DNA of 64,000 nucleotides from the NCBI GenBank assembly GCA_027923505.1, contig BROI01000027.1, positions 310,001 to 374,000 of the forward strand, written 5' to 3'. Below the pieces are notes generated by a model. The model searched no databases, was not told where the DNA came from, and was given only the letters and a program-made list of their open reading frames with translations. This DNA comes from Mayamaea pseudoterrestris. Taxonomy: Eukaryota. This document shows positions 49,986 to 63,000 of the stretch, in pieces; position 1 is the stretch's first letter, and each line of letters starts with the position of its first letter. The translations under genes were made by a program, and so were the position numbers.

Positions 49986-50755
49986 TAGAAAATAGTAACA
50001 TAAGAAAATCAAATACTTCTAGTAGGCACTGCAACTGGTTTATTACAGTACTACAAAATAATTCTGGCTAGTTAGCCTAAGCTCAGTGCGTCACCTCACA
50101 CAGTGCTTGTATCCTTTCCAGCGCTCTCCATCAAGTGACTTAAGCAGAAAGCCCAGCGAGTCACTTCCCACGAAGTGAAGCACTTTCCTCGGCACTCGCG
50201 TCATTGCGACATTATAACTTGACTGCAAGAAAGCTTAGCTGAAGAATGATTCAGACCGTAGGAGGTGATGAACAGGCCAACCATTTACAGCGTCTTCAAA
50301 TGAGTCACCCAATATCGGGCGGACCGACTCTTGTTCTAACACTGTAAAGATGAAGATCAAAAAGTGATTTTAATCCATGTAATGTTAACTGAAGTTTCAA
50401 GAACACATCAATCCAGACTGCCTGTAGGCATTGTTTGATCAACCAACACCCGCCTCTTGCGGTCGAAGCAATCGCAAACCATGGTCCTCAGAACATTGAA
50501 GGCATCCTCATCTCATTGTTATCCACCTTGTCGACGTGGAAGGATCAAATCGGCAAGCACTTTCCTACCGACAAGCTCCACCGGTAGTGTTACCCCTTCA
50601 TTCAACTGCGTTGGTGGGGATTGTACGTCTCCAAATCGGACTCGGAGCCGACGCAGGATGGAAAGGAATTTCTACAGTCTTTTCCTCTAGCGCCAGTCAT
50701 TGAATTAATGCGCGACGTTCCAGTTGATGTCATGATGGATCACATAGAGAAAGCC

Positions 50756-50925
50756 AAGCCTGCGGGGATCGCGCTGTCCACCCTCTCGCCGTCGCCAAAG
50801 CCGTCGCAGGAGGAACATACTCATGGAAGCAAACAAGCCTGCGGGGATCGCGCAGTCCACCCTCTCGCCGTCGCCGAAGCCGTCTTAGGTGGAACAAGCT
50901 CTCATGGAAGCAAACAAGCCTGCGG
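50756..50925. repeat. ~80-bp tandem duplication
   Basis: aagcctgcggggatcgcgc.gtccaccctctcgccgtcgcc.aagccgtc...ctcatggaagcaaac occurs twice. Confidence 0.85.
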
Positions 50926-51418: not shown

Positions 51419-53160
51419 ATGCCTGTCGTCAGTCCCCCTGCTCTCGCCTCGTTCTCGGGGTCTCCTACGGTCGACTTCTTGTTGCCGGAGGAATCACCTC
51501 TTGACGATACGTGGTTGGGAATGCAGGCGCCTACCAAAGTGGACCGAGCGGCGGGGATGTTGCTCCAAACGGATGGAGACAGCGGCTTGACCAGTGAGGA
51601 GAAGGCGTTGTAGGTGCACCGTGCCATGTCCAAGATTACCTTGTTCGACACTGATTACTCCAAGGAAGACAAGTCGACTTTCGACTACCGTAGCGGCAGT
51701 AACAGTTTCCAAGCGATGGGAAATTCAGCGATTCGTGGCGTCCTTTACCTCACCATTTTCAAAGTTCCAGGCGTCGGAAAAGTTGGTCCATTTCTCATGG
51801 CGGCAGCGTTCCCTTCCGGTCCACTTGGCGACGACAGTTTCATCTTACCCAAGGCGACAGGAGAAGCGAAAGCAAGTTCGAGCGACAGTCATTCGACAAA
51901 CTATCATTCGACTGGTTCGGTTCCTCAAGACGACAGTGCCCCGTTTGCGTGGCTCCCTGGAAACATTGTGACGCATTCGATCATTAAACCAGTTCTTCTC
52001 TCGATTCGTCGCAACACTCGGGCTCCTATGGAGACTGACATTGGCTCCTGGTGGGACCAGTGCTACAATTCGATGATTTTCATTCCGCGTGGAAACAAGC
52101 TCACGCACCCAGTTTCTATGGTGTGCAGTTCGACGGACATTCCCGAGGCCGATTCGCCATTTCTCAGGTTCTTCGCCGGCGACGAAACGAATATTCCCTA
52201 CCCGACATTCGAAAACCAAGTGGTTGATCCTCCTGTCAGCGTCCTGGCGACATTAGCCATGGAAAATCATGCCATGTGCACCCAACCTCAAGGTTTCATT
52301 CTCCCGACTGGTCATTGTTTCCCTTTGGGCATTCCCTTGGACGTTGGCAAGTGCGCCACCGTGGCTGAGCTTAAACTCCATCTTGCCGACTTCACGGGCT
52401 ACGACGTCGACACGTACAACTGGCTCGACTCAATTTCAACTTTGCCAGTGTGGCTCCGCGCCTGCAACATGGAGCCAATTAAGATGGCTATCGATTCCTT
52501 TTTCCTGTTTGATGTCAAAGAAACTTTTCTCCAGCTCGCGGCGCAAGACGACCACTGTGCCGAACGTACTTTTCTCTATTTGGAGATTACCATTCGCGCC
52601 AAGACAGTCATGGATCATGTTTCCAATTCATTTGGTTCAGACAAGAAGGCTTGGACAGAGAAGCTGCCGCACTTTCTGTCACTCTCACTCCAGGCGGTAA
52701 ATGGCACTCCACTTTTATCCGATTACCACCGCCATCATTCCCTGGATTGCCCCGTCATTTTTGCGTTGTGCAACCCAAAGACCGCAGGATGGCGCAGCAA
52801 ATTTCACATTCCGTTCCTCAAGAGCGGCATTCCAACATTTCTTGAAGCGTTTAAAGTCCTCCAGTTGCCAGGCCAGCGTGACAATGTTCCAGACTCTCTA
52901 CATATTTTCTCCAAGGATGAACATGCGGGAGCCAAAAGTCCTCAGTCGAAAGACAAAGCAACCGCTCCAGTGGACGCGAGTGCAATTCTTAACAATCTGT
53001 TCGGCGACCAGTTCAAAACAGTTTCTTCTCCTGCGCATGTCCACCAAGATCCATTCAAAGAACCTCCCAAGAAACGGCTCCATTCTTCCAATCACAAGGC
53101 CGATACCGTCTCCTCACGCTCCCGTGGCAACGACATCTCAATTGGAACAACTATCGAATG
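51419..53160 (+). pseudogene. Large hypothetical ORF (possibly retroelement ORF1-like), with premature stop and 3' truncation
   Basis: Frame opens at ATG 51419 (MPVVSPP), has an in-frame TAG at 51611-51613, then 560 open codons that run into the LARP-like fragment. No recognisable family motif. Confidence 0.4.
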
Positions 53161-53444
53161 TTTGGAACGCGCGACGGCGAGCCACTGCCGGACCACGAAC
53201 TCGTTTTTCAGCCAATGTCCACTCTTGCGGCCGCTTCATCATCGTCGCCATCATCCAGCAGTGCTACTCCAACGCTGGCTGGCGCAAATACATTGATTCT
53301 GCACGACGTGGATCCGTCCGTCATGGGGGTTGCCGGAAAGTGAATCACGTGTCACAAGATAAACTTGAGTTACTGCTGGCATATTGTAAATTAAAGAAGA
53401 TAGTTAACATATACAAACTATCAGTGTTTAGATTAAAAACATCT

Positions 53445-54601
53445 TTACAGTAAGCGCAGCCAACCAGAGCTGCCCAAGAACGCAAAATAAATTGACAGAG
53501 CAAGTATAAAAGCTGCAGCAGCCAAATTCAACACTTGTTCAATTGCAAAACCAACTCCTCTTGGAGCTGCTCGCGCAACTTCATCTCCTTGCACTGGAGG
53601 TGGCAGTGGCTGGTTGTACGGCTGGACAACCCGCACTGTTGGAGCTCTTGGCGTCTTGTACCCAGTTCGTGGCAGCTGGAGGCGTACTTTGATGCAGCGG
53701 AAAGTGCTTCCGTTATTAGTTGGCAAAACTACAATCTCAACGGCTCCTTCTGCCAATGGCTCCACCTTGCGTCCAAGGTCAATGTAGTCGCTGCTGCCGA
53801 CATAGACCGATTCCTTGTTGGTGGCCCGAACTTGTTGCACAGCACGCTGGAAAGCAGCCGTCTCCGCGGAACTCAATGCACAAGGCCCAAAGGATTCATC
53901 TGCAACGCGTTGGGCATCAAAAAACTCATTAGGCACGCGCTGCAAAACAAGCAATGAGCGATGATCCTTGGAAAGCTGAACTTGTATGTGCTTGGGTTCA
54001 ATGCCAGAGTTGGCAAGCAGCCGAACGGTCATTTCTTCGTCTCCTTTCTCATTAGTGAAAGGGCCACAAATGAGCTTGTAGAAGGTTCCATTGGTGCATG
54101 CTGCTTGCTTGTGGGAAGGCTTGTAATGAGACATGATGGTACTACCAAGAATGCTGTTGATTTCTTGGCTGTCGATTTCTTCAAAGGGCATCAATTCTTC
54201 CGTCGGGTCGCTAGCCAAGGTGTACGACTCGTCTTCTGACTCGTCTGCAGAAATGGAGAAAGTAATATGAGTGAGTGCTTGAAAATGACACTTTGATGTT
54301 CCGCAAGTCGCGACTTACCTGGCGCACTTGGTTGAAGGTGGCCTGGAGGCAGAACTGGAGGCGGCAAAGGTTGACGACGACCTCCTTGAGCTTGCTTGTT
54401 TGCAAGGTATTCTTGAGCAGTGCGTCGATAGTTGTTGAGCCAGTTCCGTTTCTTCACTTGGCCAAAAAGACGTTGGTGGAGACGGTAGATATTGTGAATG
54501 TAGAGCACGTCGTCAATTTTGTGTGGGTCAGCTTCGTTACGATCAAACAAGGCACAGAGATTGGCTCCCTCAACTTTGGACTGCCAGCGTCCATCAGCCA
54601 T
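53445..54601 (-). CDS. Transposon A accessory protein (exons 54601-54319, 54244-53445): helical N-domain, acidic linker, putative HSP20-like domain, C-terminal TM
   Basis: GT-AG intron restores a 360-aa frame; paralog of 55631-56809; tail VLNLAAAAFILALSIYFAFLG. Confidence 0.8.
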
Positions 54602-54827
54602 GTCAAGCTCCAATGTATGGAATCAAGCTGCTTTTTTATGATTGCAATGAGAGTGGTCGTGTGTCTGTCGTGTTGGTCGCTTCTCGTAGGTCGTGGTGGT
54701 CGTTTCTCCTCGCTGGTTGTTTCGTGGAACGGACGAGAAGCAGTTCAACGTGCACCGTCCAATGAACTGTAAGCCTGACGATTGACATTCATTCTATATA
54801 TGCCTAATGAGTCATTTTCATTCATAT

Positions 54828-55167
54828 GATGACGCAATAGGGCATATGCCGACAGGTGGCGGCATATGTATCCATCTGAAGGCATATGTCGACACCTGTC
54901 GACACATGGTGACCTCACAGTCTTCCATATTTCAATCGAGTCGCACGCAAGCTACAGATAACTGTCTGGAATAAAAATTATACCATCTGATAGAGCTTTA
55001 TTTAAGGATTCTAAATAATATAGTAGCTTCTCTATAACTACAGTATTTATTCCTGTAGAGGTCCTTGAATATTGACACTTTTTACCCTCATGTCGCATAT
55101 GTCGACACATGGCGACATATGCCAACGGGTGTCGTCGTATGGAGGCTTAAGTTGACATTACGTCATT
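54828..55167. promoter_or_regulatory. Inverted-repeat-flanked core between the divergent genes of element A
   Basis: CATATGTC-rich arms (about 54880-54913 versus 55089-55125) flank a ~170-bp core containing atctgatagagct. Confidence 0.65.
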
Positions 55168-55630
55168 ATTGCCCAAAAGTGTCAAAGTTGGCGATAGTAT
55201 TAATGTCTGCTCGATTGTGTACTGAATTGGTAATGAAAAGAAGTCAAAATCGGAAAAAATGACTTTTTGTGACCATTGATATGCAGTGCGATGCGAGGTG
55301 AGGCGAGCGAAATCGATCAATTCTCTTCGTCACGTCGTCGTCGTCGTCGTCGTCATGCTGACCATCATGCCACCAACAAAACCTCCATGCATACAAGCAA
55401 TAGTCAAGCTTATTAAATCCAAAGCTGCTAATGCACAGCTAGATGAGAGTCCCTTCAGAACATTTTGTTGACATTGGCAATGAAATAATGTCGCGTCATG
55501 GTGTCACTGGCCAGACGGGGATGCCGGAACATGAAGCAGGTGCTGCAAATAGACCATATTATTGTTATAGAGATAGCTAATTACATACAATCTATCTCAA
55601 CAATGTTTGAATGCGACATTGATTGTTTTT

Positions 55631-56809
55631 CTAAAACACATATTTTGACCAACCGTAAACCAAATTGAAAAAGTAGGCAAACAGTAGCACGCCAAAAAAA
55701 GGCACCACGCATTCCAGCACCTGCTCCCATTTTGCATGCTCAGCTGCAAAGAAGCCTCTTGGAGCTTCCGGCAGAAGTGGCCCTGCAGCTGCAGCCGCTG
55801 CCGGTGACGCATACGGATGAATGACTCGCAGCACTGGCGCGTTTGGCGTCTTGTAACCAGTTCGAGGCAGCTGAAGTGTTACTTTGATGACATGCAAGGT
55901 AGTTTTGCCCTTCTTAGTTGGCAGCACAATGATCTCAGTAGAATTTTCTGAAAGCTGCTCGACCTGGTGCCCAAGGCAGATGTAGTCGCCATCCCCGACA
56001 AAGACAGGCTCCTTGTCGGTGGCACGAACTTGCTGTACAGCTTGACGAAACGCAGCTGTCTCAGCTGATCCCATACCACAAGGCCCAAAGAATTCTGCAG
56101 CAACAATTTGCGCGTCGTAGAACTCATCAGGTACACGCTGCAGAACAAGCAATGAACGCCGATCATTGGAAAGCTTGACCGTGACGTATTCGGGTAGCAT
56201 GCCAGAGTGTGCAAGGACTCGGACTTGCAATTCAGAATCTCCAACTTCATTGATGTAGGGACCACAAACAAGATTGTGAAATGTACCATTCACACCAGAC
56301 AGCTGGTTGCGAGAAGGCTTGTGAGGCGACGGCATGTTGATGACACTGACTTGGCCGATGCTGTCGAGTTCCTTGCTGTCAATTTCTTCAAACTGAGTCA
56401 ATTCTTCCGACTCGTCACTCTTGTAGATCCAGCTGTCGTCTTCTGACTCGTCTGTGGGAAAAGAACAGGCGTCAGAGCAAGAAATAATGACATTCTGGTG
56501 TTTCCAATGCGACGCACTTGACACCGACTCACCTGGAGCAGTTGGCTGGATGTGTCGTGGCGGCAGAACTGGAGGCGGCAGAAGCAGACGAGCTCCTTGA
56601 GCTTTTTTGTTCTTTAAATACGCGTCAGCTGTGCAACGATAATTGTTGAGCCAGTTGCGATTGCTCACGTGACCGAAAAGCTGAAGGTTGAGTTCACGGA
56701 TCTTGTGGACGTAATTGGCGTCGTTGGCCTTGAGTGGATCTGCTTCCTTTTGGTCAAACAATTCGCAGAGCTTTGCTCCTTCTACTTTTTGACGCCAGCG
56801 GTTACCCAT
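55631..56809 (-). CDS. Transposon B accessory protein (81-bp in-frame intron 56452-56532; about 365 aa)
   Basis: Aligned with the element A paralog (NWLNNYR, CGP, LSNDRRSLLVLQRVP, LQLPRTGYKTP); same intron position; TM tail VVPFFGVLLFAYFFNLVYGW. Confidence 0.85.
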   Translation of the reverse strand: MGNRWRQKVEGAKLCELFDQKEADPLKANDANYVHKIRELNLQLFGHVSNRNWLNNYRCTADAYLKNKKAQGARLLLPPPVLPPRHIQPTAPGESVSSASHWKHQNVIISCSDACSFPTDESEDDSWIYKSDESEELTQFEEIDSKELDSIGQVSVINMPSPHKPSRNQLSGVNGTFHNLVCGPYINEVGDSELQVRVLAHSGMLPEYVTVKLSNDRRSLLVLQRVPDEFYDAQIVAAEFFGPCGMGSAETAAFRQAVQQVRATDKEPVFVGDGDYICLGHQVEQLSENSTEIIVLPTKKGKTTLHVIKVTLQLPRTGYKTPNAPVLRVIHPYASPAAAAAAGPLLPEAPRGFFAAEHAKWEQVLECVVPFFGVLLFAYFFNLVYGWSKYVF

Positions 56810-56944
56810 TGGGATTATAATGCTTTGTTGTTGAATGTGCCGACATCATGCTGCGATCGTGAGTGGCTGTCGTGTTTGCATGGTTGGTGTCGACTGTCGT
56901 TTCACGTCGCGAAACTGACAAATCGGCGATGGACAAGTTCCACG

Positions 56945-57313
56945 TGTCAATGATGACGTTTTATGACGCATATGAGACATATGTCCAAAGGAGTGACATA
57001 TTCGACATATGCCCACAGGTGCGACATATGTCGCATATGTCGCATAAGTCGACTACTTTGAAGGACTCTTACGGGACCATTTCAAGAGCTACAACCAAAC
57101 TAATACGCGGAATAATTGCCTCTAGTATAGCTCTATTAGATTCAATGCTGCCGGTAGCAAACAGAGGTCTGTAGGGTACAGGAGACTTGATTGAAACTTG
57201 ATGGTTTCCTTGTGCCAACAAGTGCGACATATGTGACATCTGCGGGCATATGTCGCATATGTCACTCATGCGGACATAAGTCACATATGTCCCATATGAC
57301 GCCATCATTGACA
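56945..57313. promoter_or_regulatory. ~92-bp inverted repeats flanking a ~185-bp core between the divergent genes of element B
   Basis: 56945-57035 is the imperfect reverse complement of 57222-57313; the arms are arrays of GACATATG. Confidence 0.8.
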
Positions 57314-57499
57314 TAAGTTGAAATATATACATATGCCTTAAATGTCAATTTGAGAACGCCAGCGTTACTGTTGCACTGGTCGCCAGTCGACGCGCATCAA
57401 GTGCTCGCACCAGTCGCATTAAAGCCACCATCGTCGCCCAACCACACCTGCAGTCCACCAACGTATACAAGCGTGCTGCTGCACATTTACTAGCTTATA

Positions 57500-58454
57500 A
57501 TGGCAATGAGAGTCCCACCAGAACATTTTGCTGACCTTGGTAATGAAATCATGGCGCGTCGTGGTCGTGGTGTCAGCAGCCGAACTGATCGGCGATTCCG
57601 CGCGACATTTGGAACCACGCCTGCTCTTTGCAGCACCCTTTGGATGAGACTAGACCCTTCAAGAACCATGCACCAAAAAGCTGAACCAAAGCATTTACTT
57701 TGGAGTCTTATGCTCTTGAAGCTTTATCTTTGTGAGCATGCACTTGCCGCGCTAGTCGGTGGAGTTGATGAAAAGACTGTTGCAAAATGGAGCTGGCTTT
57801 TCATCGACAAGATTTCAAGTCTTGAAAATCAAATTGTACGTAATCATAGTCCTTACAGTGTATCTCATGGCTGCAAAGTCTCATTTGTGTTCTTTCTTGA
57901 ATTTCAAACAGATTCGCTGGGAGAATCGTTTTGACGATGACATCGGGAACGATTGCTTAGTGTCAGTCGATGGCACCGACTTTCGTATTCAACAATTTCG
58001 TCCATTTTGGAAAGGATGGTACTCCCATAAATTCCATGGGCCAGGCGTCCGTTGGGAAGTTGCTCTATGTATCCGAACAGGTCATATTGTCTGGATTATA
58101 GGACCATTTCCTTGCGGTGAATGGCCTGACATCAAAATATTTCGTCATGCTTTGAAGAATATGCTGCAACAAGGTGAGCGGGTGGAGGCAGATGATGGGT
58201 ATGCGGGTGAATGCCCACAGTTTGTTGTGGCTCCAGCGCGCTTTGCTGAGGGTGCTGCACGAGTTGCAGCAACAACACAAGTACGGGCTCGGCATGAGAC
58301 AGTCAACAAGCGCTTCAAACAATGGGGTTGTCTGAAGCAAGTCTTTCGCCATGAACTTTCAAAGCAGTCACTTGTATTCCGTGCTGTTGCTGTAATAACT
58401 CAGCTTGCAATTGAGAATGGCGAGCCACTGTTTGCGGTGGCATATGATGTTTAG
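57500..58454 (+). CDS. DDE_Tnp_4 (PIF/Harbinger-like) transposase, exons 57500-57835 and 57912-58454, about 292 aa
   Basis: N-terminal HTH-like region (FRATFG...HLLWSLMLLKLY...VDEKTVAKW); catalytic CLVSVDGTD, EADDGY, RARHETVNKRFKQW; phase-0 GT-AG intron. Confidence 0.92.
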
Positions 58455-60040
58455 CTACATAGTTTATTTTTGCATAGTCGCAAATTTAAAACCTCAATTT
58501 ACAGCTCTTTACGTAATTATTGTACAATCTGCGGCCAGTGACGGGTGCTGTTGGAGTAATTGGTGCCATGTACCGGGGGTAGTTAGTAGCAATATACTGC
58601 CTGTGCCAAGTAGCAATAATAGGACATTTACTTGAACCATTTACACGCATTGCTATCTAAAACGATTCACAGGTTTTTACTTGACACTTATGCTACATTT
58701 GCTCCTAATGTGCCAAAATCTGGCATCCCCGACTGACCGACGCTTCCGCTCAACATTTGGCACCACGCCAGCAATTTGCAGCATTCTTTGGGACAAACTA
58801 GATCCTGAAAGGTTTATTCACAAGAGAGCTGAACCAAAACATTTGTTATGGGGCTTGATGCTCATGAAACTCTACCTCCCTGAGCGTGCAATAGTTTCCT
58901 TGGCTGGTGGAGTTGACGAGAAGACCTTTTCAAAGTGGAGCTGGCTTTTCATTGATCAAATCTCATTCTTGGAGACACAAGTGGTAAGTTTGGCTGGTGA
59001 AGCTCCAAGTTGCTACTTGTTTCTTTCATTTCTCATGCTGTTATCGCCATGCTGCTCCACAGATTCGTTGGGAAAACCGCCTTCAAAATGACATTGGAAA
59101 TGATTGTCTGGTTTCAGTGGATGGCACTGACTTCCGCATTCAACAGTTTCAACCATTTTGGAAAGGGTGGTACTCCCATAAATTCAATGGGCCAGGTCTG
59201 CGCTGGGAAGTTGCACTCTGCATTCGTACAGGTCATATTGTGTGGATTTCTGGTCCTTTTCCTTGCGGTGAATGGCCCGACATCAAGATTTTTCGCCAAG
59301 CTTTGAAGGGAATGCTGGGCCAAGGTGAACGTGTGGAGGCAGATGATGGATATGCTGGAGAATGTCCTCGGTTTGTGGTGGCACCAATTCGGTTTGCTGA
59401 AAGTGCTGCGCGTGTTGCCCTGACCAAGCGGGTGCGGGCGAGGCATGAAACCGTGAACAAGCGTTTTAAGCAATGGGGCTGCTTGAAGCAAGTCTTTCGG
59501 CATGCACCATCAAAGCAATCTTCAATGTTCCGCTCTGTTGCCGTAGTCACTCAGCTTGCAATTGAGAATGGTGAGCCCTTGTTTAATGTTAACTACAACT
59601 ATATGTAGTGCTGCAAGCTTTGCAAATGGTGAGTGAATGGATGGGAAATAATGTACTCCAGACCATGTAATGGATTTATTTATTAAGCATGACACTGTTG
59701 TAGTATATAACGTGTCCAAGGTACATACGACTGCCATAAAAATTTATTTACGTGGAGGCTGTCACATATGTGTTTGCCGCACACATACAAAATGACCCAT
59801 CCAAGTGGTTACAGTTGCTAAATGCCATGTGTGGACAGGAGTCACATAAGAGCCATCTGCTACAAGTGTTGCCATTTCCAGCAACCCCATGGTCGAGGAC
59901 ATTCAACTGCTGCTGGAATTGATTGAGGATTGTCCAAGCGTCGTTAGCATTCAGCCAGACGTTGCGAATTGCTGGTACGTTGAAAAATGTGAAACGAGCT
60001 TGCATTTGCGATGACTCAAGTCGGCTTGACTCGACTCGAC

Positions 60041-63000
60041 TGTGTGCATAACGCTCAATCTCATCACTTTTCTCTCGTTACTCTCACGCACGCACAGGTA
60101 CATTGTGCTGGATATGTTTTGTTGCGAGGAGCTCATGACAGTCATGATGAGACTGCGGCAGTGCACCCTGGCCGGTCAGTGCGTGCAGGCAAGGTTGAAA
60201 GCGTCGGCGCCAACGGTTTTGGATCCAGCTGCACTCCCAATGGTTGCCAGCATGCCAATGTTGCAAATGGAAATGATGCCAATGATGCCATCAACGACGC
60301 TGCAGCAGCGATGAAGGAAGAGAAACAAGAAGAAGCATCAGCAAAAGAAGCGAAACAACAATCAGAATAGCAGCAGCAGCAGCAAAGCATCTCATGTCAA
60401 AACCAATAGCAAACCATTTGTGGCGAAACCTCCATCACTGGGCGAGGAAAACTTTCCAACCATGCCGCACGAAAACAAGGTCGAGTGGGAAGTCACGCCA
60501 CCTGTGCAGCAAACGCTGGAGATTGGCTATAGCAGCAGTGGTAGCGCTTCCTCCAAGTGCAAGGGATCAGATGCCGCCTCCACCGCAACCACGGTTTCAT
60601 CTAGTGTGGACTTATCGTGCCGCAAGTTGCAGCTGCATGGGTATGCGGCGGCGCTCCTCAAGCCGCGGCCGGTTTCGAGTAGTAACGGTAGCAGCAGTAA
60701 TGCTAGCAAGTCAGTTGGCGAGACGACTGGATTGGCGCAAGGCAAACAGTTGCCAAGCGAGGCAATGCTGACAGCTTCCACTTCCAAGCATTTTAGTATC
60801 TTGCCGGCAAAGAAAATATTTATCAAAATGCCCGAGTTGTCCATGCCGTCGCAGCCAATCCTCATTGAGCCACCAGTCTGAGGCCAAGGGCGCTCCTTTG
60901 CTGATGTCATGCGTTCCTGCTAGCAAGTGAGCCATGATGACTCGTGCCAACATTATTGTCCAACTCTACATGATAAAATACATGCGCGCACCCACGAACA
61001 AAATACTAAAAGAGTCGATATGAATATAAAACAGCAAGGTAAATTATTATGTAGACCACTCAGGTTCATTATGTATTTATGGATGTTTGCATGCATGTAC
61101 CCGCTGGTACACGCGCGAGTCAAAAAAGTTGAATGCAGGCCCCTTGCTCGCTCATCCCTTGGCCTGCTTGGCGGAGCCCTACATGCGAAACGCCAAAACA
61201 AGGATTGCAAACATCGCAATGAAAAAAGCGATTGCGACTGGCTCTGACATTTGAATGACAATGACTAATCCCATGGCTTGCTGCTGAGCCGGCGGTGGTG
61301 CCTGCTGCTGCAAAACCTGCGGCAAAGGCGCCTGCAAAACCTGCGGCAGAGGCTGCTGCAAAACCTGCTGCGGCAGATTATGCGGATGCGGCAGAGGCGG
61401 CTGCTGCTGCAAAACCTGTGGAGCCGGCGGTGGCAAGAGAATGTGCCAAATTGGGGGATTATACGGAAGCATGATTGTTTCTCGTTTCTGCCTTGCTTGC
61501 TTGCTTGCTTGCTGGCTTGCTTGCTTGCTTCCTTGTTTGCAATTTACAATATGTAAATGCACTGCTGCTGTTGAATCTGCAGCTATCGAAGTCTCTTGAC
61601 TTGAGAATGAAGCCAAATGGAGGAGGCTTGGTCTCACGTCTCACAGCTCACGTCGGTCATTGTCACGGCCAATGCGCACGCGAGCACGTTCCATCCAGGT
61701 GGCTTATATAATTAGGACGCAAGGCTTATCTAATCATGACGCCATTCATGGATGCAGCTGAGCCATTAAAGCCTTCCATCCAAGTGGCATATATATTTGT
61801 GACTCTTTGTCATTGCTGCATACTGGAGTAGCAGCTTGCGACGGGCCATCAAAGTGTTCCATCCAGGAGGCATATGTATTTATGACTCGTTGTCATTGCT
61901 GCATAGCAGCTTGCGATGACAACTAAAGTGTTCTATCCAGTAGGCTTATGTATGCCGTCAACATGTGTGAGAATTTAAACATAAGGCTTATGTATTTATG
62001 ATGCAATTTCATATTCCAGCCACGCAAGCAAAGCCAAGCAATGACAAAGATCAAAACCACTGTGACACTGCCGCGGCTTTGCTGACCTTGTCATTCTCGC
62101 TCAAACAAATCCATCACCTTCATTGCCACCCCCATTCTTAACATCAACCATGAATATGGATCACAATCCTCCTTTTGATGCAGCTCCTGCAGTTGCAGTT
62201 TCTTTTTTTGATAATGAAGTAGATGAGATGGAGGTGGAGCTTGTCGCCTTGCGACAGGATGTCGTCGTCCAGTGACAGCAGCTCATTGTTCTGCAACAGC
62301 AGCTCAACAACATGTCGAGGGAGCTCAGTAACACACTGGTGGAGTGCAACATGTGGAAGCAGCAATGCAGCAAGCAACAGTGCGCCTTGGATCACTTGGA
62401 CTGTGTCGCTCCCTCTAGCCTGGTGCAAGGAAATTGGCAGACTAATCAACATAGTCAATGGCGCCGCCAGGCGAACAATTCCTTGTCGCGTGGAATGTAC
62501 CTGGATGATGCAAATGACCTCTCTGCTGTGCACCAGTTGGATGAGGAGGAGGCTGGTGACAATGACAGTGAACTGAACGATGAGCTCGACAATGAGCTCG
62601 ACAATGAGCTCCATGACAATGTAGAGGAGGAGGATGGCACTGCCAATTATGTCTCTTTTGACAGTGAGGAGGAGATGGATGAGCAAGGTGAATTGACGGA
62701 TGACCAAGAGGCGGATGGCGAAGAGACAGATGGCAAAGAGGCGGATGGCGAAGAGGTGGACGGCGAAGAGGCGGACGGCGAAGAGGCGGACGGCAAGGAG
62801 GCGGACAGCAAAGAGGCGGACGGTGAAGAGGCGGACAGCAAAGAGGCGGACGGCGAAGAGGCAGACGGCGAAGAGGCGGACAGCAAAGAGGCGGATGGCG
62901 AAGAGGCGGACAGTGAAGAGGCGGACAGCAAAGAGTTGGATGGCACAGAGGCGGATGGCGAAGAGGCAGACGGCGAAGAGTCGGATGGCGCAGAGGCGGA

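Follow-up and report, generated by a model that had tools for sequence, protein, structure and literature searches.

Two-gene Harbinger-type transposons have given rise to domesticated host genes and gene pairs, including HARBI1/NAIF1, HDP1/HDP2 and ALP1, and the part of these systems about which least is understood is the second protein. After work by Sinzelle et al. in 2008, this partner is said to act in nuclear import of the Harbinger transposase and in its recruitment to the element ends. The second open reading frame (ORF) of Harbinger elements usually encodes a DNA-binding protein of the SANT/Myb/trihelix kind, which diverges faster than the transposase (PMC5339849). Harbinger elements are part of the PHIS superfamily, whose groups are PIF/Harbinger, ISL2EU, Spy, Pangu, NuwaI and NuwaII; the 2015 survey names plants, fungi and animals as their hosts, and its main text contains neither the word "diatom" nor the word "stramenopile" (PMC4482050). 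In this study, two nested transposons of this kind were analysed in a 64,000-nucleotide stretch of the diatom Mayamaea pseudoterrestris (contig BROI01000027.1, positions 310,001 to 374,000; hereafter the window). Each of them, element A and the element B inserted into it, carries beside its transposase gene a second gene, whose product is here called the accessory protein and has the predicted layout of a tail-anchored protein.

The combination of a DDE_Tnp_4-type transposase, short terminal inverted repeats (TIRs), 3-bp target site duplications (TSDs) and two ORFs places both elements in the PHIS superfamily, and by sequence they are classified as PIF/Harbinger-like (PHIS) DNA transposons. 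The transposase can be aligned with those of the PIF/Harbinger type; the IS5/Harbinger-type DDE transposase, the short TIRs and the 3-bp TSDs are shared with the PHIS groups, and the possession of two ORFs with PIF/Harbinger and Nuwa (PMC4482050). In both elements of the window (2/2), the accessory gene lies inside the limits set by the TIRs and TSDs and forms a divergent pair with the DDE transposase gene. Splicing yields exactly the products deposited for this species as the hypothetical proteins P0002 (element A) and P0001 (element B), which are 57% identical (E 2e-127). Their genes share a phase-1 intron at the same codon of the alignment, and an in-frame stop lies just 5' of each ATG. An earlier note, made from the letters of this DNA, had described an intact protein of about 360 residues with a conserved intron in both elements and had linked the gene to the transposase; both descriptions hold, the linkage within the window, and the motifs that it quoted (W, KVEGA, LC, LFD, EADP, NWLNNYR, RSLLVLQRVP and IKV.LQLP) are invariant columns between the two copies. 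A tblastn search found no third accessory copy within the window.

The accessory gene is constrained. Comparison of A with B over all 356 codons gave a ratio of nonsynonymous to synonymous substitutions per site (dN/dS) of 0.29 (dN 0.34, dS 1.19), which excludes chance open frames and indicates purifying selection. The ratio was 0.20 in the N-terminal domain (dN 0.29, dS 1.42), 0.39 in the linker (dN 0.33, dS 0.84) and 0.23 in the middle domain (dN 0.26, dS 1.12). Over 288 codons the transposase gave 0.089 (dN 0.13, dS 1.48), so that accessory dN is 2.6-fold above transposase dN. Noncoding identity between the elements is near random, with 39/69 aligned bases identical in the introns and 347/692 in the intergenic region.

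These two genes are the second, non-transposase gene of an active, low-copy PHIS family, and we estimate at roughly 55% the probability that they encode an orphan counterpart of Harbinger ORF1 tethered to a membrane by a tail anchor. In the mechanism that we infer, the accessory protein would fill the partner role of Harbinger ORF1. Its basic three-helix N-terminal domain would bind element DNA, either at the ends or at the phased CATATG arrays of the central inverted repeat, and its conserved middle domain would contact the transposase. The tail anchor would hold the protein in a membrane, most plausibly that of the endoplasmic reticulum (ER) or the nuclear envelope, with the bulk of the protein facing the cytosol or nucleoplasm.

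Described second ORFs of PIF/Harbinger elements and their derivatives (Harbinger3_DR Myb-like, PIF/Ping ORF1, NAIF1 and HDP2) resemble the accessory gene in standing beside a DDE transposase gene, in evolving faster than it, and in encoding a small, basic, helical N-terminal domain. However, the accessory protein differs from them by an additional conserved domain of 165 residues and a C-terminal hydrophobic segment, and by the lack of any sequence relative found and of any Myb, SANT, trihelix or MADF profile match (Pfam, E<=10). The AlphaFold model places N-terminal helices at residues 2-20, 31-45 and 53-70, with a predicted local distance difference test (pLDDT) score of 55-60, and W6, Y34, W54 and the motif NWLNNYR are invariant between A and B. 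A SANT/trihelix reading of this domain, which draws on the three helices at that confidence and on the W..Y..W pattern, is conjectural. The best PDB profile match of the N-terminal domain was to glutathione S-transferase (E 0.021 over 31 residues) and was judged to be chance. The linker (residues 76-135) is acidic and proline-rich, with 12-14 D+E, 1-3 K+R and 9-10 P; a basic N-terminal domain followed by a proline-rich acidic linker, as described earlier, is thus confirmed by the residue counts in both copies. To our knowledge, membrane anchoring would be unlike every described Harbinger partner. The earlier remark that this architecture was not familiar from described PHIS elements agrees with the literature searches, in which no paper was found on a Harbinger-type transposase with a transmembrane or tail-anchored partner; in the diatom DNA-transposon and Harbinger literature, the titles and abstract openings listed do not mention such an architecture.

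Table 1. Features of the two nested elements (positions count from the first letter of the window)
Feature	Position	Strand	Remarks
Element A accessory gene, coding for P0002 (360 aa)	53445-54601	minus	ATG 54601; exon 1 54319-54601, exon 2 53445-54244
Intron of accessory gene A	54245-54318	minus	74 nt, GT..AG; stop codon of the gene at 53445-53447
Element B accessory gene, coding for P0001 (365 aa)	55631-56809	minus	ATG 56809; exon 1 56533-56809, exon 2 55631-56451
Intron of accessory gene B	56452-56532	minus	81 nt, GT..AG, in frame; stop codon of the gene at 55631-55633
N-terminal domain coding part	A (residues 1-75) 54377-54601; B 56585-56809	minus	basic: 13-14 K+R vs 8 D+E
Middle domain coding part	A (residues 140-305) 53613-54110; B 55805-56302	minus	63% identity between copies
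Predicted hydrophobic tail coding part	A (residues 332-360) 53448-53534; B (residues 337-365) 55634-55720	minus	Kyte-Doolittle
Element A, outer transposon	53326-59888		6563 bp with element B; 3346 bp minus B and one TSD copy
Element A TIRs	53326-53339 and 59875-59888		match at 13 of first 14 bases
Element A TSD	53323-53325 and 59889-59891		3 bp, ATG; flanks both ends
Element B, inner transposon	55517-58730		3214 bp; within 5' part of element A transposase gene
Element B TSD	55514-55516 and 58731-58733		3 bp, GAC; both sides
Element B transposase gene, coding for P0003 (292 aa)	57500-58454	plus	exons 57500-57835 and 57912-58454; 76-nt intron
5' stub of element A transposase gene	55443-55513	plus	cut off by element B
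Rest of element A transposase gene	58731-58983 and 59063-59608	plus	79-nt intron
Central inverted repeat, element A	54823-55121		between divergent genes; 6 CATATG sites, 20-bp spacing within each arm
Central inverted repeat, element B	56945-57335		arms 56945-57040 and 57218-57313, 96 nt, 81% complementary

The elements have moved, as is evident from the nested insertion, the 3-bp TSDs, a joint that lacks element B and the occurrence of element A next to other flanks. The TIRs of element B open with GGGGATGCC (9 identical bases); its first letters, from 55517, are GGGGATGCCGGAA, and an inverted copy closes the element at 58730. Beyond the TIRs, the four element ends share no 7- or 8-mers. When element B and one copy of GAC were removed in silico, an intact element A transposase of 289 residues was restored, 80% identical to that of element B. 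The B-free joint (55513 to 58731, 3217 letters skipped, with 3 ambiguous letters at the joint) was present in one contig each of the sequencing runs X1, X2, X3 and X4; at least 31 letters are expected on the shorter side of a joint, and this side has 27 in X1-X3 and 93 in X4 (record 28). In addition, contigs of X1 and X3 depart from the window exactly at 53326 and 59888 and continue into other flanking letters. Copies of A without B, and A-like copies or alleles between other flanks, therefore exist as DNA. The B-free joint may reflect a heterozygous insertion, paralogous copies or excision. At the X1 junction, CCA is common to both of the other flanks and is read as a further 3-bp TSD. The strict PIF/Harbinger form is TWA, which neither of the two insertions in the window shows, and ATG, GAC and the inferred CCA fit none of the PHIS TSD classes (TWA, AT, ANT, CWG and C|TNA|G; PMC4482050), in what is a very small sample. 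For the transposase of element A, the deposited model (P0004, 273 residues) starts at 58708, within the right end of element B (58708-58730), so that its first codons are the terminus of element B; the true N-terminus, encoded by the 5' stub, is absent from the model.

The accessory genes also occur in spliced, intron-less form in one run, X4. The kind of this run is not on record, none of the runs is recorded as RNA, and 10 of its 30 bins are without depth; only joints bridged by contigs were used. One X4 contig joins 53458-54244 to 54319-54584 in accessory gene A (record 25) and another joins 55598-56451 to 56533-56809 in accessory gene B (record 26), with the ends of the skipped letters reading CT..AC on the plus strand at both joints (54244 to 54319 and 56451 to 56533). 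No contig of X1-X3 contains either joint. Through the tail-coding part, both contigs follow the genome without another joint, ending at 53458 in A and at 55598 in B. Since the tail-coding part is thus retained after splicing, removal of the tail by splicing, which the earlier note had named as a reason to give up its proposal, does not count against it. Among the 21 coding variants listed (81 further differences lie outside that list), 13 are synonymous and one is an in-frame deletion of 12 nt. This deletion allele affects accessory gene B at window position 56299 (residue 144, the end of the linker) and was present in contigs of X1 and X2; a 570-nt contig that carries it differs at 10-12 other positions.

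The C-terminal tail was called by hydropathy, using the Kyte-Doolittle (KD) scale in windows of 19 residues, with a threshold of 1.6. The maxima are 2.21 at residues 332-350 in A and 2.02 at residues 340-358 in B, and the C-terminal windows are the only ones above 1.6 in both proteins. Outside the C-terminal region, a coarse profile sampled in steps of 10 residues does not exceed 0.9, and the N-terminal windows do not exceed 0. An uncharged run of approximately 21-26 residues lies within the last 25-30, with at most a handful of residues beyond it, and a model helix (residues 328-364) covers the tail with a pLDDT of about 76, in a whole-protein model with a pLDDT of 35.2. The hydrophobic tail of about 20 residues that the earlier note had described is therefore present at the extreme C-terminus of both copies. 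By hydropathy, there is a single span no more than about 30 residues from the C-terminus and no signal peptide or other span, so the predicted layout matches that of a tail-anchored protein, and the accessory protein is probably membrane-tethered. Tail-anchored or membrane-tethered proteins that bind DNA or chromatin include emerin, Bqt4 of Schizosaccharomyces pombe and the plant NTL/NAC factors. The accessory protein resembles these in its basic helical N-terminal domain, its linker and its single C-terminal span with few residues beyond (by hydropathy), but it has no sequence or fold relation to them, is encoded by a transposon and has a putative anchor.

Several points weigh against an anchored partner. 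The case for the anchor comes from hydropathy and from two copies in one genome, and the accessory protein has no similarity to a known ORF1 or to any other protein. Furthermore, Harbinger biology puts ORF1 in the nucleus; invariant positions in and near the tail (E, Q, V and L before; F, L, Y, F, F, G and W within) could form a packing interface, and the segment of copy B contains a proline and a glycine. The accessory protein could accordingly be an ordinary soluble nuclear analogue of Harbinger ORF1, whose hydrophobic C-terminal helix would serve in oligomerisation or transposase binding and be buried in a complex. We regard this as rather unlikely, given that both copies keep 21-26 uncharged residues with KD maxima of 2.0-2.2 at the extreme C-terminus despite a tail dN of 0.84 (dN/dS 0.41, dS 2.04). 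The tail sequence has diverged between A and B while its hydrophobic character has been retained, and hydrophobicity kept at low identity is typical of membrane anchors rather than of specific interfaces.

The orphan status of the accessory protein bears on a further alternative. A word-indexed protein search returned only the two window proteins, a region search with the N-terminal domain returned only itself among 14 candidates, and among 1.84 billion representatives, phmmer matched exon 2 of A to nothing but its own cluster. No match to the accessory protein was found in scans of metagenome contigs or viral contigs. Exon 2 is an unbroken frame of 265 codons that gene callers should report, so that the partner must be restricted to this lineage or else too diverged for phmmer to reach; the latter fits the 2.6-fold higher dN and the faster divergence published for Harbinger Myb-like proteins (PMC5339849). 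For the transposase (P0003 of element B), by contrast, 1202 of 1417 candidates proved to be relatives at E<=1e-3 (best E 1e-60 to 1e-79, up to 67% identity). PF13359 (DDE_Tnp_4) is precomputed in 61 of 120 transposase relatives among the matches listed, and a direct Pfam scan of 34 aligned family members found PF13359 in 20 and PF01609 (DDE_Tnp_1) in 6; the window transposases themselves reach only PF01609, with 20-23.3 bits against a cut-off of 23. Scans of genome contigs and viral contigs found no contigs carrying transposase relatives. A protein so isolated might be the product of a passenger gene, captured or arisen de novo, with a role outside the chemistry of transposition; it might counter host silencing, for instance, or serve the element or its host through some membrane function. 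Other PHIS lineages do carry unrelated extra genes, for example TET/JBP dioxygenases in fungi (PMC12730594). However, a search of the proteins deposited for this species returned just the two element copies and no host paralogue, and two elements at dS >1 agree in position, orientation, intron and central repeat. In addition, Pfam detects no DNA-binding domain in the compact 292-residue transposase, so that a partner is to be expected; a passenger origin thus seems improbable. One further run, X6, which is labelled as a different organism and belongs to the same study as X1, contains 14% of the words sampled from the 6.6-kb stretch, which suggests that another taxon may carry a related element.

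Between the two divergent genes of each element lies a central inverted repeat, which has been kept as a feature in both although intergenic identity is only about 50%. In element B the repeat holds 11 CATATG sites at within-arm spacings of 9, 19 or 28 bp, with one 37-bp gap before the last site. Overall, the spacing of these palindromes is roughly 10-bp-phased, and the two intergenic regions account for 17 of the 26 present in the whole 64-kb window; a longer pattern, CATATGYCGMCA, has 10 matches against 1.04 expected. As candidate docking sites, the CATATG arrays may be bound by the partner protein or, at a bidirectional promoter, by a host factor. A more specific form of the anchored-partner interpretation is a membrane-tethered transposition cofactor, which would bind DNA and transposase while its tail anchor held it at the ER or nuclear envelope, with the arrays serving as its docking sites. 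Transposition would then be restricted to the periphery of the nucleus, or controlled through regulated release of the soluble part in the manner of membrane-tethered transcription factors. We give this a low likelihood; if true, such a cofactor would couple mobility to stress or the cell cycle. Confirmation of a tail-anchored partner would mean that the partner slot of Harbinger-type elements can be filled by very different proteins, and would provide the first case found in which a transposon of the cut-and-paste type anchors some of its machinery in a membrane. The elements belong to a family that is both mobile and expressed. At 3.2-3.3 kb they are compact, with intact genes, known ends and occurrence both with and without the nested copy, and therefore offer a practical start for a transposition assay in diatoms.

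The middle domain is the best conserved stretch of the accessory protein, and low-confidence models give it 6-7 short strands and a 15-residue helix. The earlier note proposed an HSP20/alpha-crystallin-like domain here. No Pfam match to HSP20, CS (PF00011, PF04969) or their relatives was found at E<=10 in either copy, with the whole protein or the domain alone, and no other Pfam family matched under the same conditions. A profile search with the middle domain found no small heat shock protein among PDB sequences at E<=10; its sole match at that level, an ABC-transporter, is regarded as chance. In the ESM Atlas, the whole accessory protein scored at best 0.78 (lead level 0.9), and HSP20 was not among the named matches of the middle domain. 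The top named match of the domain, FHA (0.84), was rejected because it lies below the lead level and none of the FHA signature residues were seen. AlphaFold2 models built from the two-sequence alignment reached a pLDDT of 35.2 for the whole protein and 31.9 for the middle domain alone, so low that searches with these models carry no information. With no profile match and models at a pLDDT of 32-35, the HSP20/alpha-crystallin proposal is left without support, and nothing in these sequences ties the middle domain to that family. A predicted complex of the transposase with accessory residues 1-330 scored 0.00, which is evidence neither way.

The background quoted with that proposal is borne out, in that HDP1/HDP2 derive from Harbinger and are associated, in the Arabidopsis IDM complex, with the alpha-crystallin-domain proteins IDM2/IDM3 (PMC5339849), but it is an analogy rather than evidence on the accessory protein, which has no detectable sequence similarity to IDM2/IDM3. 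An HSP20/alpha-crystallin or CS/p23 beta-sandwich acting as a chaperone-like or anti-silencing partner, analogous to IDM2/IDM3 with HDP1/HDP2, is very unlikely: strands such as MTVRLLANSGIEPKHIQVQL and IKVRLQLPR recall the alpha-crystallin pattern by eye, the models contain short strands and the HDP-IDM complex is real (PMC5339849), but the searches above name no such family, the domain of about 165 residues with its predicted central helix is far above the approximately 90 residues of an alpha-crystallin domain, and the Arabidopsis proteins are separate host proteins rather than components of the transposon. The middle domain also contains a conserved EF(F/Y)DA, at residues 201-205 of P0002 (approximately 53913-53927) and 202-206 of P0001 (approximately 56111-56125). 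This resembles the core of the FFAT motif (EFFDAxE), which binds VAP proteins of the ER. The likeness may be a coincidence, as the motif stands directly after a predicted strand and without an acidic upstream tract.

Outside the elements, a 560-codon open frame without a Pfam match (51614-53296, plus strand) stops 30 bp short of the point where element A is inserted and may be a host gene or another repeat. Short tandem repeats flank the transposon region at 50741-50925 and 61282-61960, with units of 79-85 bp and GC-rich units of 24-56 bp.

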